Origin: an uncultured Candidatus Saccharibacteria bacterium
GTDB taxonomy: Bacteria > Patescibacteriota > Minisyncoccia > Sungbacterales > HO2-52-23
Length of the DNA stretch: 64,000 bases
Assembly (NCBI GenBank): GCA_964585475.1
Contig: CAZPDF010000004.1
Span: 23,169 to 87,168, forward strand
Direction of reading: 5' to 3'
Every line of letters starts with the position of its first letter. The stretch's first letter is position 1. The notes beneath the pieces were generated by a model that ran no database searches, had not been told where the DNA came from, and was given only the letters and a program-made list of their open reading frames with translations. Made by a program: the position numbers and the translations under genes. Of the stretch, positions 29,274 to 57,209 are shown piece after piece.

Positions 29274-32200
29274 CTATTTGGAGAGAATTTTGTCTATCTT
29301 CTTTCTGGTGAACGGGCCTACAACTCCCGTACCTTGACTAAGCCCTGACGGCGTTAAAATTTCGTCGGCATACTTTTCCTGAAAACGAATCACGGCTTGT
29401 TTGGTAAGATTGCCGAAAAATCCGGTGATAAGCCCTTCGGGATAAACACCTTCTTTGAGAAGAAGTTCCTGCATGGCTTTTACATCATCCCCGGTTGTGC
29501 CGACGGCGAGGTTTCTAAGAATTTCAAGTTTAACGGCCTGCCCGGGAGGAACTGCTGATTTTTCTTTGGATGGCATACCGAGAAGTTCATTTATCTTCTT
29601 TCTGGTTGAGGGACCGATAAAACCGCTGCCTTTCGCCAATCCTACCGGCGAAAGAATATCGGCTGCATACTTTTCTTGGAAACGAACGACGGCCTGTTTG
29701 GTAAGATTGCCGAAAAATCCGGTGATAAGCCCTTCGGGATAAACACCTTCTTTGAGAAGAAGTTCCTGCATGGCTTTTACATCATCCCCGGTTGTGCCGA
29801 CGGCGAGGTTTCTAAGAATTTCAAGTTTAATCGCTTGTCCAGGCGGAAGCTTATCCTTTGGCGCTTCTCCAGAAAGAGGAGCTGCGGGAGCCATCTTTTT
29901 AGCAGAGGTACCAACGGCTTTGACACTTACCTGATTAGTGTTTGTCGACTCGTTACCAGCCGGGTCAACTGCGCGGACAACGTAATAATATGTAATGCCT
30001 TCGGAGAGTCCTTCGTCGTCCGTAAATTCTTTTCCAGGCACTTCCAATGCTCTAATTTCACCAAGTTGAGTAGTTGTGGCGGATCGATAAATCTTCGCGT
30101 GGTCAAAATCGCGCGAAGGATTTTTCCATTCAATTTTAACTTTTCCCTGACCAAGGGCTGAAACAGTAACCGCAGTCGGCGCGACAGGTGGAATTATATC
30201 GGCTGCGGCCACGATGGCAAAGCGGGTGAAATGCGTGGTTTTACAGATCACGTTGTTTTCCGTTTTATTCACCAAGCAGTTTTCAAGCGGCTTCCACGTT
30301 CCTTTGGTTTCGTCCCAAAATCCAATGTCAAGCGTTTCTTCTTTTACGCCTTTTTCTGCGACTTCTGTCTTCTCGTAAAGAAGAGAGAGGGTAACCGGCG
30401 CCCTAAAGGAGGAGATCACCTGACCCGTAGCATCGCGAGCTTCTATGTCATAGACAATGCCTATTACCGTGACATCTCCTTGCGATGGCGTGCGCTCATC
30501 CGGTGTGATCGAAACACTTACCGAGCCGGAACTGGAGATGGCATTCGCCGGTGCAGTGACGGCCGCTCCTCCGCCGGCTGAAGAAACCACCATGGGTCGA
30601 GATGCATCAGCGGTCTTTAACGTAGACGGAGGCATTACTGCAACTTTTTGGAGATTTATCTCGTGTACCATACTAGTTGTACCGACGAAAAGCGGAACCT
30701 CCGATGCCTTATAAAGCACTCCGCCGATCTCTTTGGAAGCGGCCACTCTCCAAGTGGAGGATCCGGTGACGTTTAATATATAAGAGCCGTCGCTCTTTGA
30801 AACGGTCTCCTGGTATCCGCCCTGCTCCGCCCATCCCCAGATAAAACTTTCCGCAACGGTGGTTGTCCCGTTTACGAACACCTTCCCTGTGATTTTAAAC
30901 TCGGCCTTACGAAGTTTAAGGTTTAGGGTAAGAGTTTGTCCTTCGGCAGTGGTCACTTTCTCCTCCGCAGCGCTAATAAATCCAAACTCGGGAGGAACAA
31001 ATGTTTTTATAAAATAGGTTCCGGGAGGTACGGCAACTTTGTAAAACCCCTTCGCATCGGTCTCCGCTTCCGCGACCATGGACTCGAAAGTTCCCCCCTC
31101 AAACGCTCCGCTAAAACTGGTTTTGGATACACCCACAAAGGCATGGAATACTCCTCCTCCTACAGGATCACTGATCTGTCCAGTGATAATGGAGTTGGCC
31201 TTGATTGCGGTAAGATCCCGTACAACTGTAACATTCTCGCCAACCTTCGTTTCAATATCATGCCCTGCCGCTACGTACCCAAATGCAGGATCAATCTCAA
31301 AGCCAAGATACCAAGTTCCTGGAGCCACGCCCAAGCTATAGCTTCCGCTTACAGGATCAAGAAACGCATCTCGCCAAATATTGGTCTCGGTACTCGCAAA
31401 GATCTTAGCCGGAACTCCGGTAATAATTTTTCCGCTCTCATCTCTAAGATTTCCCGTGATCTTTGAGGTATTTCGAAAAACCGTAACTTTTACCGTAAGT
31501 GTTTGGCCGGAAGCCACCGTAACCTTCTGCGGCGGGCCGGAAGTATAGGATGAATCCGGCGGAAGGAAAAGAGATAAGGTATACGTTCCTGCAGGCACCG
31601 CTAAAGAGAAAGTTCCCCGCTCCACTGGTCCACCAAGCCCCGGCCCGCCGAAGAAAAAATCAGAACGCGGAGACCGAAGCACCTCTTGAGAAACGTCCAC
31701 GAACCCAAAGACATCGGAAACAACATTTCCTTTCTCGTCCACCACCTGCCCGGTGATTTTTGCGTCGGCAAGATGCAGCACGAAATTAACTACGGAGGTA
31801 ACGCCCGAAACCACGGTTATTTGCTTAGGAGGATCAAGACTATAAAGCTTGGTTGCAGGATCAGGCCGCGCCGAAACCTCCCAGGGCCCCGGAATTACCC
31901 GAAGATCAAATTCGCCCTGAGAATTGGTTAACGCAAAAGCAAGCCCTCCGCCTTCCGGCTGAACAGCGTTCACCTCAATTCCGCTAATGCCCTTTCCATC
32001 TTTATCCGTAACTTTACCTTTGATGTAATCCGTTCTAAGGACCAATCGAATCTCTCCCAAATCTTTAGTTTCTCCGGAAGCAACGGTTACCGCAGGAAGA
32101 GGAGGCGGACCGAACGAAGGATCCTGGGAGGCGATAAATAAAGTGTAGGTTCCGGCCACAATCGGAATCCGGAAAGAACCACTCGCGTCCACCGGGCCTC

Positions 32201-35150: not shown

Positions 35151-35163
35151 AGTAATTGTTGTG

Positions 35164-35370
35164 TTATGCCGCTTGGTATCCGAGTTCGGCAATAGCTTTT
35201 ATAATCTGCTCCTTGGTGACCTTGGCCGGATCAAACTCAAAAACCCCCTTCTTCCCGTCATAATCAACAAAGGAGGACGCGACCCCGTCCATCTGCGAGG
35301 TCAGCATCTGAATGCCGGTGGCGCAGGCGCCGCAATGCATACCCTCAATTTTTAACTCGATTTTCTCCAT
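35164..35370 (-). CDS. copZ: copper chaperone CopZ (heavy-metal-associated domain)
   Basis: 68 aa; GMHCGAC metal-binding motif. Confidence 0.8.
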   Translation of the reverse strand: MEKIELKIEGMHCGACATGIQMLTSQMDGVASSFVDYDGKKGVFEFDPAKVTKEQIIKAIAELGYQAA

Positions 35371-43124: not shown

Positions 43125-45611
43125 TTATGCCTGCTTTCTTTCAATAGGGGGCGTGTATCTGCGAAGCAACAGCGAGTTAGTCACCACCGAAACGGAACTA
43201 AATGCCATGGCAAATCCTGCAATTTCGGGACGAAGAGTTGCCTGCGAAAGATTGTAAAATACCTGCCCAGCCCCTCCGAATCGGCTACGGATAGAAAGAA
43301 TCCACGGCGCCGCCTGACCGAAAGCCGACTGGGTGATAAGAAGATGCGCTCCTGCCGCGATCGGAATCGCCAGAACGTTATAGATGAACGCCCAGAAAAG
43401 GTTCTGCCAAATTTTTATGATCGTTTTCCTCGAAAGCTGGATCGCGGTAACAACGTCGCGGAGATCGTCTTTAACCAGGATTATCTCGCCCGTCTGCACC
43501 GCCACATCGGTTCCGGACCCCACGGCAATTCCGACATCTGCCTGGGCTAAAGCCGGAGAATCATTAATGCCATCCCCCACCATAGCGACCACTTTTCCCT
43601 CCTTCTGCAGTTTTTTTATAACTTCGGCTTTGTCTTGCGGCTTGACCTCGGCCAAAATGCGGTCAATCCCGACCTGCTTCCCAATGGCCTCGGCCGTTTT
43701 GGGATTATCCCCGGTAATCATAATAATTTCTTTCTTCATTTTTTTAAGTTCAGCTATGGCTTCTTTGGCGAATGGCTTTAGGGTATCGGCCATCGCAATA
43801 ATCGCGATTGCCCTCCATGAGCCGCCCTCGTTTCGCGCGGCAAATACCACGGTTTTTGCCTGCGAAACAAGTTCTTCAAATTTCTTCGCATGCTCGGATA
43901 TCGATACCCCTAGTTTCTCCATAAACGCCGGGTTGCCGACGGCGATTTCGTTGCCCTCGATTTTACCCTTCACTCCGAATCCCGACACCGCTTCAAAATC
44001 TTTCACTTCCGGGAGATTCCCAAAAGAACCTTTCCCCTTCTCTATCACGGCGCGAGCCAGTGGGTGCTCGGACCCCTGTTCCACCGCGGAAGAAAGACGC
44101 AAGGCGTCTTTTTCGTCCATTCCGCTAAGCGCCACAAAATCAGTTACCACCGGCTTGCCGATAGTAAGAGTTCCGGTTTTATCCAACGCAATGGCCGTAA
44201 TTTTATAAGTTTTCTCAAGCGCTTCACCTCCCTTCAAAATTATGCCAAATTTCGCGGCGCGTCCTATCCCCACAATTAACGCCGTCGGCGTGGCAAGCCC
44301 CATAGCGCAGGGACAGGAAATCACCAAAACCGCAATCATGTGAACCAATGCCGCGCGGAGATCATCCGGCACGACGATAAAATACCATGCCGAGAAAACG
44401 ATTACCGAAAACACTACGACGGCCGGAACAAAATATTCGCTAATTTTATCCACTAAATCCTGCACCGGCGCGCGAGAGGCCTGCGCCTCCTCAACCATCT
44501 GGATGATTTGGTAAAGTAGCGTCTCTTTGCCGACCTTGGTCGCTCTGAACTTAAAAAGCCCTTCCTGATTTACTGTGGCCCCAATCACTTCATCATTGAC
44601 CCCTTTTCCTACCGGGAAGGACTCTCCGGTCACCACTTTCTCGTCAATATGGCTCTTCCCTTCAACAATTACGCCGTCCACCGGAATTTTTTCCCCGGGG
44701 CGCACGACTACAATGTCACCATCCTGCAGCTTGTCTATCGGCACGGTAATTTCCTGTCCGTTTTTCAGAACATGGGCCTCTTTGGCCTCAAGTTTAAGAA
44801 GCTCTTTTATGGCTTGGGACGCGCGTCCTTTGGCTTTTGCCTCAAAATAACGTCCGAGGAGAATGAAGAAAAGAAGGGCTGCGGATGATTCCCAAAAAGG
44901 ATGGTCAATATTGAAAAATAAAAACCCGAACATCGAATAAAAATACGCGGCCGAGGTTCCAAGCGCCACCAAGACGTCCATACTGGCAGCACCCACACGG
45001 ATCGAAGTAAAAGAATTACGGTAGAAGGGCCAGGCAATGATGAATTGGATCGGGGTGGAAAGAATCCAGTATAAATAGTTAAGGTCAATACGAAAGGGGG
45101 GGCTCGCAACATCCACAAAAGTGCTTAAAATGAGCTTCAGGGGCTGCGCAATGAACCAGAAAAGATAATTAACTATGTAAGCTCCATATCCCAAAAATCC
45201 CTGGGTCACCAAAACGGGCTGCTGAAGATTTACGAAGGAGAAAAACTCATGCACATGCGTCAAGTTAAACATGTGGATCAACATGTAGTAGGCGATAATC
45301 GGGATCGAGAGCGCAAAGGCCGCGCGGACTCTCCGGCGCGCCTCCTCAATTTTCTGGGCTTCTTTTTTCTCCTCTTCTTCGGCAGTAGACCCCTGTTCGG
45401 TCGGACGAATCAAGTCGTAACCCAATTTATTGATGAATTCGTCTATTTTTTCGAGAGAAATTTTGGTCTCATCAAATTCAACCGCGGTTTTTTCCGCGCC
45501 GTAACTCGTTTTAATCGAAACCACCCCGGGCTGTTTTATGAGCAGTTTATCAATCAGAACAGAACACGAAGCGCAATGCATCCCTTTAACTTTTAACACT
45601 AGCTTAGTCAT
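43125..45611 (-). CDS. copA: copper-translocating P1B-type ATPase
   Basis: 828 aa; N-terminal HMA GMHCASC; CPC motif [11 protein letters not shown]; DKTGTLT; [10 protein letters not shown]. Confidence 0.9.
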
Positions 45612-45686
45612 ACATTCATTAGACGCCAGCTGATATATATTTTATACTTTAGTAAGCTCTATATTCCTTACTAGGGGGCTGACTGG

Positions 45687-46073
45687 ATGCTATACGGTAT
45701 TGATAAAGTTACATTCCGGCACGGCTTTTGCGAGGGTCTAATGCTGGGGGCGGCTTTTGCTATACTGCTATTTTTAGGCGCAATATTTAAGCTGGGTGGG
45801 ATCGGAACGGACGTAAATTATGGAGCAACGCTCGGGGTTTACGTACTAATAGTGGGGGCGCTAGCGGCCGCCACAGTGAGAAATCCGACGAGCGGTATGG
45901 GGGTTACTTCCGGAGCAGGATTTCTAATGTCTCTCGCCGCTTTCGGAGGACTCTTATATGCACAGGGGGCCGGTCAAGCAATCCGGGTAAGTACAGGCAT
46001 ACTACTTACTACAATTCTTGGCATGTGCATCTTTGCCATAATTCAAATCATCAAGCAGAGGTACGATGCATAA
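45687..46073 (+). CDS. hypothetical membrane protein
   Basis: 128 aa, 3-4 predicted TM helices, Gly/Ala-rich. Confidence 0.4.
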   Translation: MLYGIDKVTFRHGFCEGLMLGAAFAILLFLGAIFKLGGIGTDVNYGATLGVYVLIVGALAAATVRNPTSGMGVTSGAGFLMSLAAFGGLLYAQGAGQAIRVSTGILLTTILGMCIFAIIQIIKQRYDA

Positions 46074-46103
46074 ATGAGAGAGCGGTTTATACCGCTTCTT
46101 TTT

Positions 46104-46541
46104 TTATTGTGTGGAACTGATGATACTCCTCACATGTATCTTTCCTATCATATCAAAATGGGTTCTTTTTTTGCCTTCCACTACTCCCTCTCCGCAGGGC
46201 ACCGAGCAGTAAAAAGGAAAGTCTCCTTCCTGCGTTGCCACAAATTCAATTTTTACCGTCTCATTTGCCGGCATACGCTGGGAGATACCGTAGGCGTCAA
46301 TCGCGATTCCATGATCATATTCATCTTCGTTGACAATGGTCATCTTGATTCTATCGCCGCGATCTGCCTCGATAACTTCCGGGGTAAAACGCCATTCGTT
46401 TTTATCGGCGACAATCGTCACTTCGCGGATAACTCCGGTTTCAACCGGCTTTGATTCTTCAGGAAGCAAAAACGCGCGATAAAGAACACCGCCGCCAATA
46501 ATCAGAACGCCTACGATAATAAGGATTGCATACTTGTTCAT
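46104..46541 (-). CDS. membrane-anchored cupredoxin-like copper-binding protein
   Basis: 145 aa; N-terminal TM; beta-rich domain with H..(D/H)HG...FYCSVPCGEG....H..M candidate Cu ligands. Confidence 0.55.
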   Translation of the reverse strand: MNKYAILIIVGVLIIGGGVLYRAFLLPEESKPVETGVIREVTIVADKNEWRFTPEVIEADRGDRIKMTIVNEDEYDHGIAIDAYGISQRMPANETVKIEFVATQEGDFPFYCSVPCGEGVVEGKKRTHFDMIGKIHVRSIISSTQ

Positions 46542-46545
46542 AAAC

Positions 46546-48693
46546 CTACTCTGCCTTTGCGGCTTCTACCTTTTTCGGATTAACCCGCAAATACTTATGA
46601 ACCCCAAAGCTTAACAGCGCCATTAAAATCAGAGAGGCAATAAGAAGAATCCACCATGATGAAACAGCCGCGGGCGCTTTCTCTTCAACCTTTATCCAAA
46701 ATTCAGCTGTCAGAGCTTCGTCTTGGGGCAAGGCAATGCCCTTGGGCCGAAACTGGGCAAATATTTTATAAAGTCCCGCCTCCGGAAATACAGCGTGGAA
46801 ATTTATCACCTCATCCTTTCCCTCCTCATGGATTGCTCCCGGCACCTCCTCATCTCCATGGGCAAGAGCTTCAGGAACCATACGCAAACTATGATGATCT
46901 CCTATTTCGGGATGCGTATGTATAAACTGCTTCCAGTCATCCTTGATTATCGTCAAATGCATTTTTGCGGCAAGATAATCCTCTACCTCAACCTCGTCTC
47001 CGGTGAAAGTATGGACGTCAAAAGACAATTCATGCTCATGCCCCTTTGCAACCGGCTCATCAATTTTTAACGCAACCTGATACTGTCCGACAATAACGTT
47101 TCTTCCAAGAGAAACTTTTCTCTCGTCCCGCGGACCTTCGCCCGCAACCGAGATTTCCGGATGGCCAAAGGAATGATTAACGCCGTCTTTTTTAATTTCT
47201 GACCAGATCTTATAAAGCCCGGGGTTGGAAAATGCATAATTAACCAGTAAATGTCCGGGGGTAGACGTGGGGCTGGGATGTATATGGAAAAATTCATTCA
47301 TGTCGCTCCGAAGACCTATGACATGCATGAGTTTGGAGTGCTCAATTTCTAAATCCTGGACCGGAACAGGGACGTTTCCCGGCTTGTCGTTTATAAAGAA
47401 ATCAAGTTTTTGTACTTGACCGGTTCGGTAAGGAACGGGCGCGATATTCAAATTTACTGCAACCCCCTCCCGCACTTCATTTTCCTCATGATATTGTGCC
47501 GCTCCGTGCTCGTCATGTGCTCCTCCAGTGCCTTCTGACATCACCATTGAATGACCCGAGGGTGGCGGGACCGTAAATGTCCAGCCGGTTGAATTACCGA
47601 TAACAAGGGCAATAGCAATGTATGTTATGGAAAGCCATAACATCGTACGCCGGGACGGACGCTTAAAAATAAACGCGGCCAGTATCGTCACCGCCAGGAG
47701 CCCCAGAAAGAACATATTCCCGTACTTAATAAAACCAGAAATATCAACGAGCGGATGCTCGTGCTTGAGTATGGTTTCGCCGAACCGCTCGCCCGAAATA
47801 TTGACTACAAATTGCTCCCATGCGCTATGAGTACCTGAAGCAATAAACCAGTCATGGCCAAAGATGCCGAAGGTAAGAAGATATGCGCCGATGATGAGAA
47901 GCATCCACCCCATTACTTTCCCAATGCCCTCTTTATGCCGGGCGACACCGGAGAGCGCATTCACGCCCAAAGTGCCAAGAATTGCAAGGAAAATAAGCGG
48001 TACTGACCGCCCCATGCCGTGAACAAAACCAAGAAACCATCCGTTAAATATATCGCCCGTAGTTGCGATGTATCCCAGAAGCACATAGAAAGCGGGGTTT
48101 GGACAGCCGACACCGGCATTGCCCAGAAGCAGCCCAAGAAGAAATGTCTTCATATAATCTTTTCGGCGCTGGATAAAATCAGGGAACTTGCCGGAATACG
48201 AGGGAAGTTTAAATTTTATTAGCCCGACCTCGGATAATCCGAAAATAAATGCGGCGAACCCTCCAAAAAGAACCGCGTAGACCTCTGCATCAGACTTGAG
48301 GCCGAAAGCTTTACCAGCAGCCGCAATAAAGACCCCATATAAGGAAAGTGTGATCGTGAGCCCCAGAGTAAAGGTAAGCGCCATAATAAGTCCTTTCTTG
48401 GGGTCCTTCCCCATGGTCAAGGGAACAATGACAAAAGCAAGCGGCAGGGTGCAGGGCAAAAAAATCATGGAAAGGCCCGCGACAAATGAAAGTGTCAACC
48501 CCACGGTAAGCTCCGGAGTCGTAGCCATCCAAAAAAGACCCACCACGAAAACAATAAATAAGAAAAAACCGAATATCCCGATCTTAAATCTGATTGATTT
48601 TTCGTGTTGCGCCTCTTCAGCCGTTACTGGCGGCTTGGTCTGACTCGGCTGCGGCTCTCCTCCGACAGGAGGAGTAATAGTATTTGGTTCCAT
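46546..48693 (-). CDS. CcdA/DsbD-like thiol-disulfide transmembrane domain fused to His-rich extracytoplasmic domains
   Basis: 715 aa; MIFLPCTLPLAF resembles the CcdA/DsbD TM1 Cys motif, second Cys GVGCPNP; C-terminal region with HEHELSFDVHTF, IHTHPEIGDHH, FHIHPSP clusters and terminal TM. Confidence 0.5.
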   Translation of the reverse strand: MEPNTITPPVGGEPQPSQTKPPVTAEEAQHEKSIRFKIGIFGFFLFIVFVVGLFWMATTPELTVGLTLSFVAGLSMIFLPCTLPLAFVIVPLTMGKDPKKGLIMALTFTLGLTITLSLYGVFIAAAGKAFGLKSDAEVYAVLFGGFAAFIFGLSEVGLIKFKLPSYSGKFPDFIQRRKDYMKTFLLGLLLGNAGVGCPNPAFYVLLGYIATTGDIFNGWFLGFVHGMGRSVPLIFLAILGTLGVNALSGVARHKEGIGKVMGWMLLIIGAYLLTFGIFGHDWFIASGTHSAWEQFVVNISGERFGETILKHEHPLVDISGFIKYGNMFFLGLLAVTILAAFIFKRPSRRTMLWLSITYIAIALVIGNSTGWTFTVPPPSGHSMVMSEGTGGAHDEHGAAQYHEENEVREGVAVNLNIAPVPYRTGQVQKLDFFINDKPGNVPVPVQDLEIEHSKLMHVIGLRSDMNEFFHIHPSPTSTPGHLLVNYAFSNPGLYKIWSEIKKDGVNHSFGHPEISVAGEGPRDERKVSLGRNVIVGQYQVALKIDEPVAKGHEHELSFDVHTFTGDEVEVEDYLAAKMHLTIIKDDWKQFIHTHPEIGDHHSLRMVPEALAHGDEEVPGAIHEEGKDEVINFHAVFPEAGLYKIFAQFRPKGIALPQDEALTAEFWIKVEEKAPAAVSSWWILLIASLILMALLSFGVHKYLRVNPKKVEAAKAE

Positions 48694-48729
48694 GAAATTT
48701 ATGAATTTAATTAAACTGGTAAGTGCTTG

Positions 48730-49122
48730 TTATTTTACGTATTGTGTGGCTTCGCCGAGAGTTTCTTTTGGAAGATCCCGAGAAAGGGTGATTATTAAAA
48801 GCGCCAAAGCCGCGCCCAAAAGTCCTATATCGCGGAAAGTAATCGAGAAATTTACTTCGCTGAAAGGAAGAAAGGCAAGTATAAAAATTGTGAGAAACTC
48901 AAGCGTTGAAAGAAGCGCAACCAACTTCACCAGCGGCGGTTTCGCGAACCAGGCAAGAAGTACGAGCGCCATGAATATTTCGAGCGCCCCCTGCATCCGT
49001 AAATAGCCGTCAAGCGGGATGATTTGCGCAATAATCTCCCGAAGCCAATATGGCAACACCCAGTACCATGCCCTCGGATGCGCCATAAGGTGATAACCCG
49101 AATAAAGGTACATGGTCCCCAA
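48730..49122 (-). CDS. hypothetical membrane protein
   Basis: 130 aa, 3-4 TM helices. Confidence 0.35.
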   Translation of the reverse strand: MGTMYLYSGYHLMAHPRAWYWVLPYWLREIIAQIIPLDGYLRMQGALEIFMALVLLAWFAKPPLVKLVALLSTLEFLTIFILAFLPFSEVNFSITFRDIGLLGAALALLIITLSRDLPKETLGEATQYVK

Positions 49123-49169
49123 AGATAAACGCAGAATCCATTCCGGTTTTAATTTTTGTAAATAGCTGG

Positions 49170-49433
49170 TTATGATAATTCTTTTAGCTTTTCTACAAAT
49201 TTCTCCTTATTAAAACCCCCCGTAGCCCAAAGTTCACCGTTTAAAATTATTCCCGGAGACGCAAAAATCATATGTTTCCCGGCCATTTCTTGACCCTCCG
49301 GCGTAGTTACGTCAACTTTCTTATACGACACGCTCGGCCAATCCTTCTCAATAGAGTGCCAAAATTCTTCGAAGGCCTTGCAGATGTGGCATCCGGGCGC
49401 AACCAACTCTTCAAGCAAAATCGGCTTTACCAT
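49170..49433 (-). CDS. thioredoxin-fold protein (CxxC)
   Basis: 87 aa; PGCHICK active-site-like CxxC near N-terminus. Confidence 0.6.
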   Translation of the reverse strand: MVKPILLEELVAPGCHICKAFEEFWHSIEKDWPSVSYKKVDVTTPEGQEMAGKHMIFASPGIILNGELWATGGFNKEKFVEKLKELS

Positions 49434-49645
49434 TATCGTAATTATATCCTATCTAAAGGGCGGAACCCTAATTCTCTTTTCCACATATTCTCTGTGATAA
49501 TTCGATAAGTTTATGATGCAATACTAAACTTTATAAAAACATGTTATAATAAGTGCAGAGGAGGAAAATGCGGCAAAGATAAGAGCTTTTTAAAAGAAAC
49601 CACTCGGAATCGCAACTTGCGGGATAATCTGTCAAGTACTTTGAT

Positions 49646-49678
49646 AACCTCTCTTTACATCAAAAAGAGAGGTTTTTG
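49646..49678 (+). terminator. rho-independent terminator
   Basis: AACCTCTCTT..AAGAGAGGTT stem followed by TTTTTG; ~65 nt downstream of a 4-codon mini-ORF. Confidence 0.45.
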
Positions 49679-49824
49679 TAAACAAAGTGTGGAAAAGTTC
49701 TGGGTAAGGGTGGAACAAATCCTGAATATCTCCGGTCCCATTGTCTCCATCAACGCTAAAAAATAGCGTAGGAAGGCGATAATGAGGACGGGGGTCAGCA
49801 CACCCAGCCATACCGGGATCCTAT

Positions 49825-50334
49825 TTGGAGAAGGGTCTGGGTATGGCCTGGTGGACACACTTATTATTCTTCAGGAGTTATCCTGATGCCCAAAATGGGA
49901 AAATTTCGAAAGAAGAAAATCTCTTCGCTTTGTTTAATCGTGCCCTCCGAGAGTATATTTACAAAAATTTTCTCGACATCCTCCATTTCGTCCTTTCCAT
50001 CTGTACGTACGTATATCTGGGACTGGCCATTGTCACATTTTTCTTTGAAGAATACGTGCCGGCTGCCTTCCCCTCGGTTATTGAAACGCTCTCGGAACCG
50101 TACCTGGGAGTATTGGGAATCTATGTGGTGGTGCGGGAACTGGAACGAAGACGCGGCCGACAGGTACGTACGGGCCTGGGAGAACTCTTTGCGGTAATTT
50201 GGTTTTTCTTCTTCGTCGCGGCAAGTTTCCTCACCTATTTCTCAGAACACTATGCTCTAAGCGCCATCTACAAAACCGTGGTCACCAATGCTCTGGCCGC
50301 CCTAATTATAAGAATTGGGATACTACTTAGATAA
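49825..50334 (+). CDS. hypothetical membrane protein
   Basis: 169 aa, 4 TM helices. Confidence 0.35.
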   Translation: MEKGLGMAWWTHLLFFRSYPDAQNGKISKEENLFALFNRALREYIYKNFLDILHFVLSICTYVYLGLAIVTFFFEEYVPAAFPSVIETLSEPYLGVLGIYVVVRELERRRGRQVRTGLGELFAVIWFFFFVAASFLTYFSEHYALSAIYKTVVTNALAALIIRIGILLR

Positions 50335-50394
50335 TGGGCGGGCCGCACTAATTATCCGCGTGGGAACTCTTCTTCGATGATCTGGCCAGATAAG

Positions 50395-50425
50395 AAAATG
50401 CTCCGACTTGGGTCGGAGCATTTTC
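50395..50425. terminator. bidirectional rho-independent terminator (AAAATGCTCCGAC..GTCGGAGCATTTT)
   Basis: Perfect 13-bp stem with A/T tracts between convergent genes; stem core shared with the 29205 hairpin. Confidence 0.55.
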
Positions 50426-50455
50426 TTATCCAAAAATATCGAGTAGCGCCGCCGA

Positions 50456-50914
50456 CTAAAACAAACTATACGACCATGGCTCCGGAACGGCTGCCAACAT
50501 CAACGCCGCCCCAAGAAGCGCCATATTCTTTGTGAAATTCACCATCTCCATCATTTTCATGTTCGGATCCGAAATCTTCCAGAAGGCGTGCATCTTGAAA
50601 GAAACCGAGACCAAAAAGAGGACCAGTGAGGCGATCGCCCAAGGAATCAAAACTCCGAGGAAAATCCCTAGCCCTCCCAAAAGTATGAGGAGGCCGGAAA
50701 ACACAACTGCAAATCCGGGAGCGGGTACTCCTTTTGATGAAGCGTACCCAGTGAGCATTCCCCTTTTCATTAAATGGTTCATACCATTCATAATGAAAAA
50801 CCCTCCATAGAGCATTCGTCCAATCAAAAAAATAATTTCCATATTCTTAATTTGCGGATTTACCCCGTTACTTAGAATACCCTGCAGTCGAGTCAGACTC
50901 GACTGCGGTTTCAC
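50456..50914 (-). CDS. DoxX-family membrane protein
   Basis: 152 aa; 4 TM helices with DoxX-like FIMNGMNHLMK..G start. Confidence 0.6.
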   Translation of the reverse strand: MKPQSSLTRLQGILSNGVNPQIKNMEIIFLIGRMLYGGFFIMNGMNHLMKRGMLTGYASSKGVPAPGFAVVFSGLLILLGGLGIFLGVLIPWAIASLVLFLVSVSFKMHAFWKISDPNMKMMEMVNFTKNMALLGAALMLAAVPEPWSYSLF

Positions 50915-50951
50915 GCCATAGAGTTACCGCGGTAGTCGTTCGTAACTAGGT

Positions 50952-51509
50952 TTATCCCTTTATTCTGCTTCGACCTTTGTCCATATTCTTCATTCTTCTC
51001 CCTATGAACCAACCCGCGATTAACCCCAATAAAAGGCCACCTCCCACGCCCAGAAAAGGCGGGCTATTTTGATCATTATTTTTTCGTTCCTGAACATCTA
51101 TCAAGAAATCTGGCGCCTCATAAATTTCCTCTGGATTTGAGGCAAGCGCGAAATCAAAAAATATTTCATGAAGACCAGCATCACTAAAAGTATATTGAAG
51201 TTCCAATACGCCACCTTTGACCCGAAGATTGCCCTGTTCGAAGACAAACTTTCTATCTCTCGCCAGTTTTGAAATCCGAACCCTTACGACAAGATCCTCC
51301 CCGAAGAGATTATTTGTTTTGAGGTCCACGAATGAAGCAAGAAAAGAGGTCTTTATGCCAACATGAGGAGTAAAAGGCGCACGGGAAAGATTAATATAAA
51401 ATTTTCCTTCAACAATGCGCTGATCGCCGCCGTTCGCAAAGGAAAAAAGGGGTACTAGTACTACAGAAATCAATATAATCAAAAATGGGATTATAGATTT
51501 GGGTATCAT
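50952..51509 (-). CDS. hypothetical secreted/membrane-anchored protein
   Basis: 185 aa; N-terminal signal/TM, C-terminal TM; no domain. Confidence 0.35.
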   Translation of the reverse strand: MIPKSIIPFLIILISVVLVPLFSFANGGDQRIVEGKFYINLSRAPFTPHVGIKTSFLASFVDLKTNNLFGEDLVVRVRISKLARDRKFVFEQGNLRVKGGVLELQYTFSDAGLHEIFFDFALASNPEEIYEAPDFLIDVQERKNNDQNSPPFLGVGGGLLLGLIAGWFIGRRMKNMDKGRSRIKG

Positions 51510-51564
51510 TCTTGTGACGTCGAGGACTTATTAACAAAAAATCTCGCAATGAAGGGCAAAATTA

Positions 51565-51828
51565 CTAATCCGATTGCAAGGCTAACCGATTCGAACTCTT
51601 ATCTTGTTCGCAAGCGACACAACCCTTATGTTCGCTATGACCTTTATTCATGGCACGCATAGCCAAAACCATTGAAATCGGACAAAGAGCGAAAAAAAGA
51701 AATGGCGCAAACGCTATCGCTTGTTGCGAAGAAAATATAAAGAATAGTCCCGCGCCAAGCGCAATCACCACCAGCAACCCTTTCAAGTTGAAACACCTGC
51801 TTACAAGTTTTGATTGTTGTTTGTTCAT
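51565..51828 (-). CDS. small membrane protein with C-terminal CxxC and His-rich tail
   Basis: likely start MNKQQSK; 2 TM; ..KGHSEHKGCVACEQD. Confidence 0.35.
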   Translation of the reverse strand: MNKQQSKLVSRCFNLKGLLVVIALGAGLFFIFSSQQAIAFAPFLFFALCPISMVLAMRAMNKGHSEHKGCVACEQDKSSNRLALQSD

Positions 51829-51833
51829 AATCT

Positions 51834-53480
51834 TTATGTGCCACACGAGGCGCCGCCTTTTTGTTGCGGAACAAGACCGAGTTCGCTTACTTTTTGCTCA
51901 ACAAGGCTTGCTCCACTTGCGCTTGAATAATCCTTGCCCATTATCATCTTAGGATCGACCTTATTCCAGTCGGTGTTTTTTACCGCCTTAAAATAGAGTG
52001 CGGTCTGAACGTAATTATGCGGAAACCAAAATGAATTGAAGGCAAGCGCTTCTCGGTACAGCTCATCTTCGGTAAGTCCTTGGGATGCCCCGAGCTGGAG
52101 AAGCCCCAAAAGAGCTGACCCGTGATTGCAATCCTGATAGAAAGTCGAGTTATTGCAACAGGGCCTGTAGGTGTTTTGAGCAATTTTTGTGACGAGTGCC
52201 TCCTCAACCGGCGTAAGCTCCACAATTTTGAATTTGTTGAAGTAAGCGCCGCCGTTTTCTTCTTTGCCCAAATCCCATCCGCCAGTTGATGCAAAACTAA
52301 AGAGCGACCTGCCATTGATTGGGCTTTCTTTATTTGACGACATATAATTTGCAAGTCCAATCGGCCACATGAAATTTACATAGTAGTTGGCGTTTTTCCG
52401 CGTCAGTATAATAGGCTTCTGGGATGGTGTATCGAGGATGTTTTTCAATTCATCGGGGAATCCGCCGCGATCTTGGTAAATTGCCAAAAATTTCTCGCGA
52501 TCTATCACGCCGTTTTGTGTGAGTTTTACCACGCTCGCGCCGAGTGCGATTTTACTTTGGAATCCTTGCTCCGGCAGAACCTGTGCGGTGACTTCATCAA
52601 CAAGTTTATTTCCCGTTCCCGAAATGTCGACGTTGTAGAGCGTGTTGTCATTCGGGTTGAAGATGCGGCTTTGGGCGAGGGCTTTCGCAATTATCGGTTC
52701 GGTTTTGAGCATATTCCAGCTCGCAAGCGAAAGCGCGATAACAACGGCCAAAAGCGCAAGGAGCCACGGCCGATCCGATTCTTTGAATCGGTGATCTTTT
52801 GGCACAGGACAGGTTGCGTCGCCGCATTCAAGCTTTTTGAGATCTCTCCGCATGAGCCAGACCGGCAAGGCCATGAGTCCAAACGAGAGCGCTTTGAGCT
52901 CTAAACCTTGAAGTGGAAAAGCGGCAAGCCCCCCGGCGATTCCGATCGCGGAAAGTATGGTTGAGCCGCAGACAGGACAGGCGGAAGCAGCAATGCCTAC
53001 GATGGAACCGAATCCAGAAGCGGTCCCTCCTTTGCTAAAGCTTCGGAGGGCAAAGCCGAATTTTCTCCAACGATAGACAAGGAGCGAGATATTAACGCCG
53101 AATAGCGCAATTGCTCCAAGCGTCAGAATCACATACGGCCAGAAGTAAAGAGGTGTGCTATATGTATTAGTGATGACATTCGTAATTGCCGAATCAAGGC
53201 GGAGCACCCAATAGAGGACAAGGAAGAAAGCGAGTGATGAGATAATGCCGATGAGTCCATAGAAAAGTTTCGTCAAAAATTTGATGTCTTCCGGCTTGAG
53301 ATCGTATTTTTCCCTTTCCTCATCTTGCGGAATAGCATGTGCCGTGATTTCAATATTGCAGCTTTTGTGTTCCCGGCACCACGCCTCGCATTTCTCGGCC
53401 CACTCTTTATCTTCGTATTTGAAGCCGCACTCCTCGCATTGATGCAATTCTTTATTTTGTTGTTGAATTATTTTGACCAT
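51834..53480 (-). CDS. membrane protein with N-terminal Cys4 zinc-ribbon, Cys-containing TM core and ~300-aa extracytoplasmic domain
   Basis: 548 aa; CEECG..CEAWC zinc ribbon; TM helices incl. ASACPVCGS and ECGDATCP; C-terminal domain with CCNNSTFYQDCNHG; family unknown. Confidence 0.45.
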   Translation of the reverse strand: MVKIIQQQNKELHQCEECGFKYEDKEWAEKCEAWCREHKSCNIEITAHAIPQDEEREKYDLKPEDIKFLTKLFYGLIGIISSLAFFLVLYWVLRLDSAITNVITNTYSTPLYFWPYVILTLGAIALFGVNISLLVYRWRKFGFALRSFSKGGTASGFGSIVGIAASACPVCGSTILSAIGIAGGLAAFPLQGLELKALSFGLMALPVWLMRRDLKKLECGDATCPVPKDHRFKESDRPWLLALLAVVIALSLASWNMLKTEPIIAKALAQSRIFNPNDNTLYNVDISGTGNKLVDEVTAQVLPEQGFQSKIALGASVVKLTQNGVIDREKFLAIYQDRGGFPDELKNILDTPSQKPIILTRKNANYYVNFMWPIGLANYMSSNKESPINGRSLFSFASTGGWDLGKEENGGAYFNKFKIVELTPVEEALVTKIAQNTYRPCCNNSTFYQDCNHGSALLGLLQLGASQGLTEDELYREALAFNSFWFPHNYVQTALYFKAVKNTDWNKVDPKMIMGKDYSSASGASLVEQKVSELGLVPQQKGGASCGT

Positions 53481-53489
53481 AAGCGTGAA

Positions 53490-53702
53490 TTAATGATGGT
53501 GTTCGCTGTCGCCGCCGCAACCATCCGAGAGATTCCATACCTCGGTTAGTTGTTCGCCAGTGAAGCCGTGATCTTTAATAAGATATTTTCCTAATCCGCC
53601 GTAGACATACCACCGCCAGCATTTACAGCAGCAAGGCCCTTTTTCGCTTGAGTTTTGCATAGCATAATCATACGCTTTTTGTTCTTCTGGGGTAAACTTC
53701 AA
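53490..53702 (-). CDS. small Cys-rich protein with C-terminal HHH
   Basis: 70 aa; GPCCCKCWRW....DGCGGDSEHHH; probable metal-binding; co-directional with and 10 nt upstream of the 548-aa gene. Confidence 0.4.
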   Translation of the reverse strand: MKFTPEEQKAYDYAMQNSSEKGPCCCKCWRWYVYGGLGKYLIKDHGFTGEQLTEVWNLSDGCGGDSEHHH

Positions 53703-53808
53703 ATTGTATCTCCTTAGAAAATCTTCTGTTTAAAATCATAACATAATAATATTAAAAAACAGCCCTTGCGGGGCTTGCAAAAATCCTAAATATCCGAGGA
53801 GGATGATT

Positions 53809-54176: not shown

Positions 54177-57100
54177 CTATTGATCGGAAGTTCTTCTCCA
54201 GAAAAATTCAATGATGCTCGCAAAAAGTCCTCTCGGCGTGGAGGATGTTTGCGACTGGGTACCGGAGGGCATAAATTGCTTGCATGCCAGATCCTGGTAA
54301 TTTTTAGTGCAGTAAGACGTGCATTCTTCAGGAGTTTTGCAACCGCCCGGTCCGCTGAAGTCCGTCTGCGATGAACCAGAGCATTTGCCCTTACTACCAG
54401 CATTAAAGATGGTCTGGACTTCGGACGCGTTTAACGCCCTGTTGTATACGGAGGCCTCATCAATCAAGCCGGAGAAAAATTCAGTGCTACTCCGCCATGA
54501 CCCGAGCGTAAACGGATCATCGCTCGTTGATTGTGTATTTGGAGCCTGCCGAAGGATAGTTCCCCGCGACTCGCCATCCACATATAATTTGACGTTGCCA
54601 GAACCATCTTTCGTGCCAACGGCATGATGCCAAACTCCCGAACTAACAGGCGCGGTAACGATGGTCTGACCTTCAGCTTTGGTAGTTTCTCCAACAGAAA
54701 ATTCCAATGTTCCATTACCTACCCTAAGCCAGTATCCCGATCCGGGGCCGCTTGAAGGATAGTTTGATTTTCGGATGATGTTATTTACGGATGATCCACC
54801 ACCCCAATGAAACCAGGCTTCCAAAGAAAATGGTCCGGTCCCGAAATTTAGATTCGCGGGATTTCCGATATTGACGCTACCCGCATTAAATTTGAGCGCA
54901 TTCCCTACTTTTCCGTCGTCAGCGATAGCGGCCCCACCAGAGAGAGTCCCGCTATTTCCATCAGCACTGTCTGACGCACTTGCGTCCCCCTTCCACCAAC
55001 TGACTAAACCTGAAGGCACCGGGGCGCAACTTTGAGTTGGAGGTGGTGGCGGAGGCGGCAGAATAGAGCACGCTGCAAATTCACAGTTTGGCGCTACACG
55101 ACCAACACTACTTCCGTTAGGACACTGTTTTAGATCTTCGGGGCAAGCAAGGCCGCCTCCGTAAGCAACGCAGGCAGGATCGGTGTAGTGGGTTTGACAA
55201 TAAGCTTTACATTCGGCTTGGCTTAGGCAACCGCCTGGGCCTGGTTCACCGCCAGTGCTTCCTCCTCCGCCGATATAGGAAGCACAAACTGGATCAGTGT
55301 AATGGGCGGTACAATAAGCTATACATTCTTCTTTATTCGTGCAGCCACCAGGGCCATTAAAGCCGCCTCCCCCGCCAGACGGAGGTTGGAAACCTCCAGG
55401 CAATCCACCTGCTCCGCCAGGCGGCTGAAAGCCCTTGCAAGCATCCGGATGTTCCTGACAATATGCTTTACATTCTTCTTGACTCTTGCATCCTCCAGGC
55501 CCGCCCGGGAATCCTCCACTTCCTCCTCCCGGAGGACCAAAACCTTCGCACTCTTCTTGATGGGCGGTGCAATACTCAATGCATTCTTCTGTATTTTTAC
55601 ATCCTCCCGGTCCGCTAAATCCCCCCTCGCCAAAATTACCTCCTCCACCTAACGATTGCTGTAGTTGCTCAAAACATCCTTCCAATGACTCAAAATTCAA
55701 ATCCTCGCCGAATTCCCCACTTTGGAGTTTCCGAAGCCCGTCTTCCCCAACCGCACCTTTAATGCACTCTACTGCTTCGGGTGGCAACTTGCTTAATTTT
55801 TGGCTTAAGTCGGCAGTCATCTGACCAAAGCAGGATTTCATTTTTCCTTCCATACCTCTGTCAAAAATCGGCTTGCCGTTCTTGATTTTCTCGAAATTTT
55901 CTTCGCCAAGAGCATCCTCAAGACATTGGACGACCTCGGGCGGCATTTTATCAAGATTTTCGCGGAACTGCTCCATTCCCTTGCTCATTCGTTCAAGGTC
56001 GGCTTCGCTCATTAGTCCATGTTCCTTGGCAAAATTGAAGCACTCCTCGGAATTTTCTTCACAATACGCCTCGCATTGCGTCTTGCTGTGGCATCCGCCC
56101 GGTCCTTTTCCTCCTACTTTTCTTACCATTTCGGCTTCTTCCGCCGTCATAACCCCGGCTTTTTCAGCAAAGGCAATGCACTCCTCTATATGATTATCTT
56201 CAGAACAGTAATTCTCGCATTGTTCTTTGGAGGTGCAGCCGCCCGGGCTCTCGCCCTGGCGCATCAAAACCATGAACTTCCTTGCCTCATCAATCTCTTC
56301 CTGAGGCATGAAGCCGCTTTTTTCGGCGAAATTCAAACACTCTTCCATGTGACTGGAATCACTGCAATAAATCTCGCAGGTGTTTCTGTCTTTACAACCG
56401 CCCGGGAACTGCGCGCCGGATTTTACCAATCCTTGAAATTTTCTAGCCTCGGCCAATTCGTCGCCGGAATAATAGCCGGTCTCCTCGGCAAAGGCGATGC
56501 ATTGATCAAGATGATCAATCGTATTGCAATAATTTTCGCAGGAAGACCAGGAGTTGCAGCCGCCGGGGCCATTTTTAATGTTCAGGAATTTATCAGCTGC
56601 TTCTTTGGATTCTTGTTCCGAAATCAAATTGTATTTTTTGGCAAACGCGAGACACTCTTTGGCGTGGTCAACATTATCACAATAGGAACGGCATTCGGCC
56701 TCGCTTTGACAATTTCCCAACTCGGGTACGGGGTATTGAATATCTTCTGCCGAAAGCGGTCCCTCTTTCTTCTCTTCTTGCGGAGGTGGAGGAGGCGGCG
56801 GAGGAGGCACTTCTTTTTTCACCGCGACACTTTTAGCTACTCCTTTAACAGGGGGGGAAATCTCAAGCTCGGTGGTATTGTTTTGACAATCAACAACATA
56901 GGCGGGCATCACCGGCGTAAAATCGGAGGGATCACGGAAGGATACGTTGTCGCTCACAAAAGATTTGCTGCAACCGCTCAACAACCCGCCGTAACGGAAT
57001 TGCTCTACCGGAGAAAGCGAAAACTCCTGAACGCCGTCGGGGTCTCTGATGGTTAAGGTAAATGCTTCGGAACCGGGGGGTTTTTTAAAATTTATTGAGG

Positions 57101-57209
57101 AATCATTGACGGCTGCCTCGACGTGGATGGTCGCCAAACTCAACAAAAAGGAAAGTACCAATATACTTGCGGCTAATAATTTCGTGGTTGTAATTGTCTT
57201 GGTATTCAT
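54177..57209 (-). CDS. secreted protein with ~8 tandem Cys-rich ~45-aa repeats, poly-Pro and Gly-rich linkers, and C-terminal LamG (concanavalin-A-like) domain
   Basis: 1010 aa; signal peptide; repeats GGC.S...CE.YC.......EC..FA...G; PPPPPPPPPQ; LamG-like region with LYVDG, VWHHAVG and LIDEASVYNRAL motifs. Confidence 0.65.
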   Translation of the reverse strand: MNTKTITTTKLLAASILVLSFLLSLATIHVEAAVNDSSINFKKPPGSEAFTLTIRDPDGVQEFSLSPVEQFRYGGLLSGCSKSFVSDNVSFRDPSDFTPVMPAYVVDCQNNTTELEISPPVKGVAKSVAVKKEVPPPPPPPPPQEEKKEGPLSAEDIQYPVPELGNCQSEAECRSYCDNVDHAKECLAFAKKYNLISEQESKEAADKFLNIKNGPGGCNSWSSCENYCNTIDHLDQCIAFAEETGYYSGDELAEARKFQGLVKSGAQFPGGCKDRNTCEIYCSDSSHMEECLNFAEKSGFMPQEEIDEARKFMVLMRQGESPGGCTSKEQCENYCSEDNHIEECIAFAEKAGVMTAEEAEMVRKVGGKGPGGCHSKTQCEAYCEENSEECFNFAKEHGLMSEADLERMSKGMEQFRENLDKMPPEVVQCLEDALGEENFEKIKNGKPIFDRGMEGKMKSCFGQMTADLSQKLSKLPPEAVECIKGAVGEDGLRKLQSGEFGEDLNFESLEGCFEQLQQSLGGGGNFGEGGFSGPGGCKNTEECIEYCTAHQEECEGFGPPGGGSGGFPGGPGGCKSQEECKAYCQEHPDACKGFQPPGGAGGLPGGFQPPSGGGGGFNGPGGCTNKEECIAYCTAHYTDPVCASYIGGGGSTGGEPGPGGCLSQAECKAYCQTHYTDPACVAYGGGLACPEDLKQCPNGSSVGRVAPNCEFAACSILPPPPPPPTQSCAPVPSGLVSWWKGDASASDSADGNSGTLSGGAAIADDGKVGNALKFNAGSVNIGNPANLNFGTGPFSLEAWFHWGGGSSVNNIIRKSNYPSSGPGSGYWLRVGNGTLEFSVGETTKAEGQTIVTAPVSSGVWHHAVGTKDGSGNVKLYVDGESRGTILRQAPNTQSTSDDPFTLGSWRSSTEFFSGLIDEASVYNRALNASEVQTIFNAGSKGKCSGSSQTDFSGPGGCKTPEECTSYCTKNYQDLACKQFMPSGTQSQTSSTPRGLFASIIEFFWRRTSDQ

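Follow-up and report, generated by a model that had tools for sequence, protein, structure and literature searches.

A cysteine-rich membrane protein family with copper- and mercury-linked gene neighbourhoods in a Patescibacteria copper and thiol-redox island

Whether microbes survive copper or mercury is decided by accessory proteins, and unassigned genes persist in many cop and mer islands. Outside the cytoplasm, CusF, CopL, CopG and PcoC/CopC work as Cu(I) binders of a sink or chaperone type, and DsbD-DsbC, ScsABCD and CcdA-TlpA-Sco repair or prevent aberrant disulfides and thiol adducts. A MerR-copA-cupredoxin-DUF2933-ICMT cluster has been described in Alteromonas and other Gammaproteobacteria, and its accessory genes are functionally uncharacterised (Cusick et al. 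2021, PMC8478169). Here, we analyzed a 64,000-nucleotide stretch of contig CAZPDF010000004.1 (the window) from an uncultured Candidatus Saccharibacteria bacterium of the Patescibacteriota. Its region 43125-53702 is a copper and thiol-redox island, in which copper export and an extracytoplasmic thiol module are integrated. The central protein of our finding is p548, a 548-residue fusion protein encoded in this island. Three linked families, namely the RPCC domain of p548, its CxxCG membrane module and the Cys-rich CCC200 proteins, are strongly tied to metals by their gene neighbourhoods, which feature copper pumps and mercuric reductase.

p548, its RPCC domain and the CCC200 family

The p548 gene occupies positions 51834-53480 on the minus strand, as do all genes of the 43125-53702 region except two hydrophobic orphan open reading frames (ORFs). 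We found 757 homologues of p548, 59-85% identical and all annotated as hypothetical, and the CCC200 family comprises at least 1703 clusters (90% identity); the two ORFs are therefore not chance. The best hits mark the source of the window as a Parcubacteria-type member of the Patescibacteria. Aligning 34 homologues (59-81% identity with the window protein) divides p548 into four parts. Residues 1-47 (53340-53480) form an optional cytoplasmic Cys4 zinc ribbon (C15, C18, C31, C35), present in about two thirds of the aligned homologues and weakly matching DUF7128. Residues 66-258 (52707-53285) form the membrane module, with an invariant C168-P-x-C171-G motif within a hydrophobic helix and C219/C224 in the next loop, whose sidedness we infer. 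After a further transmembrane (TM) helix, residues 290-548 (51837-52613) make up the outward-facing RPCC domain of about 260 residues. The membrane module also exists as stand-alone proteins of 170-213 residues, which share GxGCxxCG...LPLxGxE and terminate with CxxC or with one Cys; some of them are encoded directly upstream of merA.

Invariant elements of the RPCC domain are R-P-C441-C442 (YRPCC), D450-C451-N-H453-G (DCNHG) and ASTGGW, with C546 in a C-terminal GxCG tail; the ligand-type residues comprise four near-invariant Cys plus His and Asp. A Cys lies within the last ten residues of 195 of 212 members. RPCC is also a family in its own right, with at least 1193 cluster representatives at 50% identity in an exhaustive HMMER search; many members are proteins of about 300 residues with a single N-terminal anchor. 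The domain is predicted to be extracytoplasmic, since the 152 short forms have either a twin-arginine-like signal (about 20 of them) or a Sec-type anchor. The structure prediction that the sequence-only reading of the window had proposed as a check gave an AlphaFold2 RPCC model with a pLDDT of 94.7 and a pTM of 0.92, the C-terminal tail being the only low-confidence part, and this model matched no solved fold in the PDB (best Foldseek hit, E = 1.1). In addition, 32 diverse RPCC members gave no Pfam match, and there was no NCBIfam or PDB match at the sequence or profile level and no PF00403 HMA domain. p548 as a whole likewise has no Pfam, NCBIfam or PDB match and none to DUF411 (PF04214), and Pfam/NCBIfam searches were empty for the stand-alone membrane modules, for p185 (see below), for a Cys/Met membrane protein and for the HWHP protein of related loci. 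Within the literature covered on DUF2933, Patescibacteria copper, copper-ATPase neighbours and Patescibacteria mer, which is an incomplete selection that leaves room for an earlier description, these families are not described.

RPCC relatives occur in at least 588 species-level genomes (one genome per species scanned), spread over Patescibacteria (Parcubacteria, Microgenomates, Gracilibacteria), Alpha-, Beta- and Gammaproteobacteria, Chloroflexota, Acidobacteriota, Rhodothermia and archaeal metagenome-assembled genomes. The cultured Trinickia dabaoshanensis carries a relative, and ten Burkholderia/Paraburkholderia plasmids carry an RPCC gene annotated "hypothetical protein". Identities of 60-85% between distant classes of the candidate phyla radiation (CPR), together with 67% identity to a protein on a high-GC archaeal contig, point to horizontal transfer of p548, with binning errors as a possible contributor. 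That contig (L027), binned as Methanobacteriota, encodes a full-length p548 homologue with zinc ribbon (7207-8793) at 3.2 kb from a CopA gene, and reflects either inter-domain transfer or a binning error.

Full-length CCC200 proteins have about 200 residues and a membrane anchor, and in relatives their gene lies directly upstream of p548. Eight conserved Cys fall in the motifs SSCS, GSCCSPM, PCCCKCWRW and DGCGG, and a His-rich tail is frequent. In the window, the corresponding place is taken by a 70-residue ORF (53490-53702, minus strand), which aligns to residues ~126-205 of full-length homologues and retains only the C-terminal third, the PCCCKCWRW...DGCGG-HHH module, lacking a signal peptide, anchor or TM segment. 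Compared by blastn and tblastn with L008, the closest relative whose context is available, the window shows homology only from ~53698-53729 onward into the gene, and the missing N-terminal part is absent from all reading frames upstream of the remnant. The breakpoint region (53698-53775, minus strand) contains a terminator-like hairpin (53761-53775) and a promoter-like site (53703-53732); the pattern scan that picked these out found promoters no better than in shuffled sequence and serves only to describe the breakpoint. Short CCC200 forms in the databases (68-123 residues) are mostly halves of split full-length genes, with the N-terminal half just upstream (L088 from Mesorhizobium, L089, L090). 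Given the partial alignment, the homology breakpoint, the lack of an upstream frame and the split short forms elsewhere, the 70-residue ORF is a truncated gene. A genuine family of small proteins, the alternative that we considered for it, was rejected on the same observations, and the metallochaperone system that the sequence-only reading had considered for its operon has to be corrected in that this gene is an anchorless remnant.

Neither the 70-residue ORF nor full-length CCC200 matches any Pfam family, including PF00403 (HMA with MxCxxC) and PF04214 (DUF411). Comparison of the CCC200 C-terminal module with the CC...C core of RPCC by hhalign gave probabilities of 47-70% with E between 2e-4 and 4e-5, a lead rather than proof that the part kept in the window may be distantly related to the RPCC core. 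We also noted that CCC200 genes are repeatedly truncated, frameshift-split or gap-interrupted in unrelated genomes (window 53490-53702; L088 5667-6219; L089 5595-6207; L090 125-718; L018 8820-9311), which suggests frequent decay or a hard-to-assemble sequence. Two further proteins accompany these genes in CPR loci (examples: L001 6492-7004; L004 8396-8716; L002 6913-7296). A small membrane protein with the motif GCPF/M..GQ...C.M...EH...WQQ.F lies 5' of CCC200 in 11 CPR loci, and a 170-180-residue 'HWHP...HTHD..IHxE' protein is often inserted before p548. Both are without family assignment and absent from the window.

Copper and mercury genes around p548 relatives

To survey genomic context, ORFs were called in 80 species-level loci with flanks totalling 0.94 Mb and searched with the window proteins. 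A P-type ATPase was found in the flanks of 26 of the 80 loci, always within 5.2 kb and in 15 cases within 1.7 kb; among the 26 loci having at least 5 kb on both sides, 14 contain one. Nearly all of these ATPases have YN and MxxSS together with either the CPC of the Cu(I) type or the CPH of the CopB type, and one is Zn/Cd-like. Short RPCC forms, which lack the membrane module, most often adjoin copper ATPases (22 of 51 loci, several at 70-150 bp). Co-conservation with copA across genomes, which the sequence-only reading had named as a test, is thus borne out for the RPCC family by co-localization with copper-type P1B ATPases across phyla.

The most frequent neighbour is a DsbD/CcdA-like gene (27 of 80 loci), which often overlaps the start of short RPCC genes, followed by CCC200 (23 loci, mostly immediately upstream). 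Further neighbours are a CsoR-type repressor (PF02583) and DUF1573 (12 loci each), Met-rich (10) and DsbA-like proteins (9), multicopper oxidase, SCO, ICMT-like methyltransferase and DUF3105 (5 each) and DUF2933 (4); CopZ-like, cupredoxin and TlpA/Redoxin genes recur as well. On the Burkholderia/Paraburkholderia plasmids and in Trinickia, the homologue lies within metal islands containing DUF2933, DUF411, CcdA, TlpA, SCO, MerR-type regulators and ATPases. A B. thailandensis plasmid carries an annotated DUF2933 gene directly upstream of the RPCC gene, amid DUF411, CcdA, TlpA, SCO, a MerR-type regulator and a DUF2282-DUF692-DoxX set, which we take to be of the bufferin type; a P. fungorum plasmid has the RPCC gene among P-type ATPases, HMA proteins, thioredoxin/CcdA and merA/merB. 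The gene combination of the window itself recurs in other loci: p548, cupredoxin, CsoR and a protein resembling the 715-residue DsbD-like window protein, then HMA and thioredoxin (L032, L036); p548, cupredoxin and DoxX (L028); and p548, thioredoxin and p185 (L007).

Several other proteins were seen in these neighbourhoods. DsbD-like membrane proteins of about 270 residues, in which two helices bear vicinal CC pairs (FAPCCITF, SSCCAPVLF; L058 8998-9822, L060, L062, L063, L083), overlap the start of short RPCC genes downstream of copA and have no Pfam family and a weak TsoB-like NCBIfam match. A 140-152-residue membrane family with an intramembrane CCAH[HY]L motif occurs in four copper/mercury loci (e.g. 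L057 11268-11726; L067 14402-14824) and matches neither Pfam nor NCBIfam. A class I S-adenosylmethionine-dependent methyltransferase gene directly adjoins the RPCC gene on Burkholderia and Paraburkholderia plasmids (L086 9919-10485; L087 8066-8683), and ICMT-type methyltransferases accompany DUF2933 in other bacteria.

A true MerA with C-terminal KLSCC is encoded in 6 of the 80 loci. Three of these are Microgenomates-type operons with the order ArsR-CCC200-p548-MerA (L018, L024) or ArsR-CCC200-MerA-p548 (L026), whose MerA proteins score 471-501 bits against TIGR02053 (cutoff 454); reading their ORFs brought no obvious MerT/P/C/F gene to light, although this reading did not include a scan against mer-transporter Pfam models. 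Another locus (L090) combines a split CCC200, ArsR, MerA and a stand-alone CxxC membrane protein. Altogether, p548 or its membrane module stands in an operon with merA in L018, L024, L026, L090, L093, L098, L103, L104 and L106; the window has no MerA.

We also scanned metagenomes with MerA as the seed, obtaining 27 loci, in which the slot between ArsR and MerA was read where the upstream region was present. Seven loci have a Redoxin/TlpA-like and a MerC-like protein there (PF03203, 27.2 bits vs 27.6), and five have a small CC protein, a Redoxin and two paralogous CxxC membrane proteins. The 172-residue CxxC membrane protein is a homologue of the p548 membrane module, and the two paralogues are related at 91% hhalign probability. 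A p185 homologue lies 3' of MerA in L098, L106 and L117. In L098, CopA, cupredoxin and a relative of the 130-residue window protein (p130-like) are divergent from a mer operon of the form ArsR...TM(CxxC)-MerA-p185, the same building blocks as in the window. CPR mer operons (L091-L106 and the survey loci) thus come in three variants between ArsR and MerA, with Redoxin and a MerC-like protein, with a small CC protein, Redoxin and two CxxC membrane proteins, or with CCC200 and p548. Two ideas were tried and rejected along the way. CCC200 is not a general flank of CPR MerA, as the scan gave MerC-like proteins or CxxC-membrane paralogues instead, and at the level of detectable homology the p548 membrane module is not a diverged MerC, as it reached an hhalign probability of 6.7% against a CPR MerC-like profile and has no Pfam match.

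Because the family stands in operons with true MerA in CPR relatives, soft thiophilic metals in general, rather than copper only, are the better description of what the module handles. The integrated copper-detoxification and extracytoplasmic thiol-redox module envisaged in the sequence-only reading therefore stands as regards the CopA/cupredoxin/CcdA/thioredoxin island and the ATPase linkage, and has to be widened in scope, mercury being linked too.

The surrounding genes of the window

In the window, p548 is part of the third transcription unit, five tightly spaced genes in the order CCC200 remnant, p548, DUF2933, p185 and DoxX (intergenic gaps 9, -13, 55 and 37 nt). The sequence-only reading had seen a three-gene Cys-rich operon of no nameable family; its three genes are indeed linked, and p548 and the family of the 70-residue remnant do lack Pfam, NCBIfam and PDB matches, but the operon has five genes, including the omitted p185, which is co-conserved with p548, and DoxX at its end, and the 93-residue protein is a borderline DUF2933. 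This two-TM protein (51565-51846, minus strand) has an LCPISM motif and a C-terminal HSEHKGCVAC and scores 21.8 bits against PF11666 (gathering score 21.0); phmmer found DUF2933 homologues in metal loci L014, L047 and L080. p185 (50952-51509, minus strand; 185 residues) combines a signal peptide, a beta-rich, predicted outward-facing domain ('ANGGDQR..GLHEIF') and a C-terminal anchor, contains zero Cys and matches neither Pfam nor NCBIfam. Its homologues lie directly 3' of p548 in L001, L004, L007, L008, L010, L012 and L031. The operon closes with a 152-residue DoxX membrane protein (50456-50914, minus strand; PF07681, 35.7 bits vs 23.6), of which a homologue lies near p548 in L028 (1e-38).

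The copper-export genes and redox genes named in the sequence-only reading held up under profile searches; every ORF that it listed is in place on the minus strand, with all quoted motif strings present. CopA (43125-45611, minus strand) belongs to the P1B-1 Cu(I)-exporting ATPases and has a single HMA domain at its N-terminus (46.3 bits), scoring 588.2 bits against TIGR01511 (cutoff 397) and 631 bits against TIGR01525 (cutoff 346) and carrying the motifs of this class, SCPC (CPC) in TM4, YN in TM5 and MxxSS in TM6. The predicted copZ nearby is a gene for a CopZ-like, 68-residue HMA metallochaperone (35164-35370, minus strand; motif MHCGAC; PF00403, E 1.5e-13, 51.4 bits) at a distance of 7.75 kb from copA. 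A terminator-like hairpin at 46080-46097, bidirectional and located between the cupredoxin gene and a plus-strand ORF, suggests that copA is transcribed apart from the cupredoxin/CcdA operon. This plus-strand ORF (45687-46073; 128 residues, hydrophobic), which ends at the hairpin, has no family match and no homologue among the fetched loci, and its reality is doubtful.

The second transcription unit has four genes, given here in the order of their coordinates. One encodes a membrane-anchored, 145-residue cupredoxin-like protein (46104-46541, minus strand; PF13473, 37.7 bits vs a cutoff of 27), which among NCBIfam models comes closest to the NosZ CuA region (TIGR04246, 1e-10). Its candidate ligands H77, C112, C116, H128 and M131 include a CuA-like C112-x3-C116...H128-x2-M131 pattern, with 11 residues between C116 and H128 compared to 3 in canonical CuA (H..CxxxCxxxHxxM). 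Homologues adjoin p548 relatives in L021, L023, L028, L032, L098 and L106. The adjacent gene encodes a 715-residue protein (46546-48693, minus strand) with a CcdA/DsbD-type membrane domain in its N-terminal half (PF02683, DsbD_TM, 48.3 bits vs 27.1, E 1e-12), extra TM helices, two His-rich, beta-rich repeats predicted to face outward and a C-terminal anchor, in keeping with the predicted fusion of a CcdA/DsbD-like domain to His-cluster domains. It has exactly two Cys (C81, C197), each in a hydrophobic segment, the one-Cys-per-half arrangement of DsbD_TM. Its His-rich C-terminal 300 residues match nothing in Pfam or PDB, and the protein shows weak similarity to p185. Shorter homologues followed by HMA and thioredoxin genes are found in L032 and L036.

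The third protein of the unit is a 130-residue polytopic membrane protein of unassigned family (48730-49122, minus strand). Two DoxX-like proteins had been proposed in the island; the 152-residue protein is one, and the 130-residue protein was rejected as the second, with no Pfam match at E<=0.1 and no BLASTP alignment to the 152-residue DoxX at E<=100. A weak homologue adjoins CopA-cupredoxin in L098. The predicted CxxC thioredoxin-fold protein, also of this unit, is an 87-residue protein with a CHIC motif (49170-49433, minus strand; PF13192, 25.4 bits vs 24.8), with homologues in L007, L032 and L036. The second orphan ORF (49825-50334, plus strand; 169 residues, hydrophobic) has no family and no homologue among the fetched loci.

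Two large proteins elsewhere in the window are recorded here as separate observations. A 1010-residue secreted protein (54177-57209, minus strand) contains about ten four-Cys repeats (GPGGC..eEC..YC....EC..FA), which have no Pfam family, Gly/Pro-rich linkers and a Laminin_G_3 domain (PF13385, 9e-26), and a 1972-residue surface protein (29274-35192, minus strand) consists of many ~95-residue repeats with two near-identical peptidoglycan-binding-like repeats at its end.

Possible functions and comparison with known systems

Judged from sequence and context, the p548 family is probably a new kind of toxic-metal handler. We see about an even chance that the p548 system is a thiol relay that binds Cu(I)/Hg(II) or serves as their permease, resembling MerP/MerT/MerC in function and not by homology. 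This reading is based on the conservation of Cys, His and Met, the predicted export of RPCC, neighbours that include copper pumps, copper sensors and mercuric reductase, and the occurrence of the membrane module in the MerC-like slot; metal binding, the direction of transfer and membrane topology are what we infer. As a whole, the region would defend a Patescibacteria cell against soft, thiophilic metals. CopA and CopZ would pump Cu(I) out of the cytoplasm, and the second operon would supply outward-facing redox and copper-binding parts, i.e. the CuA-like cupredoxin, the CcdA-type conduit fused to His-rich domains and the CxxC thioredoxin. RPCC would capture Cu(I) or Hg(II) via its CC/C-x-H site and flexible C-terminal Cys tail, normally assisted by membrane-anchored, Cys-rich CCC200. 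From there, the intramembrane CxxCG pair would take over the ion and hand it to the cytoplasmic Cys pair, for delivery to cytoplasmic detoxification by MerA in relatives and by CopZ/CopA in the window, with DUF2933 (CPxxM), p185 and DoxX as putative accessory membrane components. Decay of the local copy is conceivable, given a truncated CCC200 partner and the lack of a visible reductase; the p548 module of the window may be partly degraded or may work only with the copper genes.

A number of points weigh against such a relay. The membrane region of p548 is modelled with a pLDDT of only ~40, and hydropathy clearly resolves four of the five helices needed; moreover, the module shows no detectable homology to MerC (hhalign, 6.7%) or to any Pfam transporter family. 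The 64-kb window contains no MerA, ArsR or CsoR gene, and importing Cu(I) only to re-export it would have no obvious benefit. Among the MerA-seeded loci, none contains CCC200, and most CPR MerA loci use MerC-like proteins. The expectation of about one ATPase by chance per 0.94 Mb is an estimate from typical gene densities and not a measured control, and the taxonomic labels are doubtful for many loci, which stem from metagenome-assembled genomes. Finally, the DsbD-like and thioredoxin-like neighbours would fit an electron relay equally well.

In such an electron relay, the CxxCG module would carry reducing equivalents outward, in the manner of the separate DsbD/CcdA-like proteins whose genes adjoin the short forms, and RPCC with CCC200 would be a new extracytoplasmic thiol-disulfide reductase/isomerase acting on disulfides and adducts caused by Cu or Hg. 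DsbD-like genes are the commonest neighbours and often overlap the starts of short RPCC genes (L058, L060, L062, L063, L083), DsbA-like, TlpA/Redoxin and SCO genes recur nearby and the window itself carries the CcdA fusion and a thioredoxin. An enzyme-like site is suggested by motifs that are conserved without being ligands (ASTGGW, YSS), and flavoprotein disulfide reductases have electron-shuttling tails similar to the flexible C-terminal GCG tail. However, no solved redox fold, thioredoxin-like or other, corresponds to that of RPCC, the membrane module contains a single intramembrane CxxC in place of the two pseudo-symmetric single Cys of DsbD/CcdA and is not detected by DsbD_TM, and a position beside MerA, in the MerC-like slot, is hard to reconcile with redox repair. 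We regard this explanation, like the Cu(I) sink considered next, as unlikely but still a serious rival.

We consider it similarly improbable that the system is a non-transporting extracytoplasmic Cu(I) sink or chaperone, in which RPCC and CCC200 would bind Cu(I) released by CopA/CopB and either block its re-entry and the damage it causes or pass it to cupredoxin or oxidase, the membrane module being an anchor or a reductant of the site. The frequent placement of periplasmic short forms without membrane module beside copper ATPases (22 of 51), the CsoR, multicopper oxidase, Met-rich and cupredoxin genes nearby and a Cys/His ligand set typical for Cu(I), as in the CsoR and CopG sites, would agree with such a role. 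It leaves unexplained, however, the invariant intramembrane CxxCG and cytoplasmic Cys as well as the stand-alone membrane modules directly upstream of merA, and a mere binding site would hardly require so many non-ligand residues to be strictly conserved. A non-metal function, e.g. in envelope biogenesis, with the families merely co-travelling on mobile cop/mer islands, would accord with the horizontal mobility seen in 59-85% identity across distant CPR classes and 67% to the archaeon-binned contig, and with fused-type loci that have no metal gene in the available flanks (L002, L004, L009), but is very improbable in view of an association that spans many phyla and gene orders, ATPase, DsbD-like and MerA genes that lie close by or even overlap, and conserved residues that are almost all Cys, His or Met.

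Returning to the thiol relay, a broader version of it can be put forward only tentatively: CCC200, RPCC and the CxxCG membrane module might constitute an unrecognised, widespread class of thiol-relay transporters or chaperones for Hg(II) and Cu(I), built on a domain without PDB match and spread horizontally among CPR, Proteobacteria, Chloroflexota and archaea, serving as the metal-uptake step in CPR mer operons without recognised MerT/P/C/F and as a new partner of copper ATPases. If true, this would represent a new structural solution for thiophilic-metal handling, could explain Hg(II) import in those mer operons and would give names to thousands of "hypothetical" genes, including genetically testable ones on Burkholderia plasmids.

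The closest functional parallel would be MerT/MerC/MerF with MerP, which would share with the p548 system an intramembrane Cys pair, a cytoplasmic Cys pair and an extracytoplasmic Cys binder; in CPR relatives, the operon place between metalloregulator and merA is shared as well. The p548 module differs in having no MerC/MerT Pfam match and an hhalign probability of 6.7%; the 70-residue HMA fold of MerP contrasts with a 260-residue RPCC domain without PDB match and the ~200-residue, eight-Cys CCC200; and copper ATPases are commoner partners of the family than MerA, which the window lacks. CopG (DUF411, periplasmic CxCC) is similar in its Cys cluster (CxCC-x-x-W vs PCCCKCW in CCC200), its extracytoplasmic site and its presence in copper islands, and on the B. 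thailandensis plasmid 7 kb separate the RPCC gene from a DUF411 gene; CCC200 and p548, however, lack a DUF411 match and have other sizes and motifs, and RPCC matches no thioredoxin-like fold. With DsbD/CcdA-TlpA-Sco and ScsABCD, RPCC shares co-occurring CcdA/DsbD-like, TlpA/Redoxin, DsbA-like and SCO genes and the theme of extracytoplasmic Cys kept functional under copper stress, but RPCC, CCC200 and the CxxCG module fall outside these families by Pfam/NCBIfam. CusF, CopL (DUF1541) and CopC-PcoC resemble the proposed system in Cu(I) acceptance outside the cytoplasm and in genes that adjoin copper exporters; they show no sequence or fold kinship, and the ligands of RPCC/CCC200 are dominated by Cys rather than Met/His/Trp. 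The Alteromonas cluster (PMC8478169) recalls the window, where copA is followed by a cupredoxin gene with DUF2933 in the same island, and ICMT-like genes occur near RPCC in 5 loci, but it is devoid of RPCC, CCC200 and CxxCG-membrane genes. Resistance islands are known to use Cys residues for handing over thiophilic metals; the parts described here, RPCC, CCC200 and the CxxCG module, are new.

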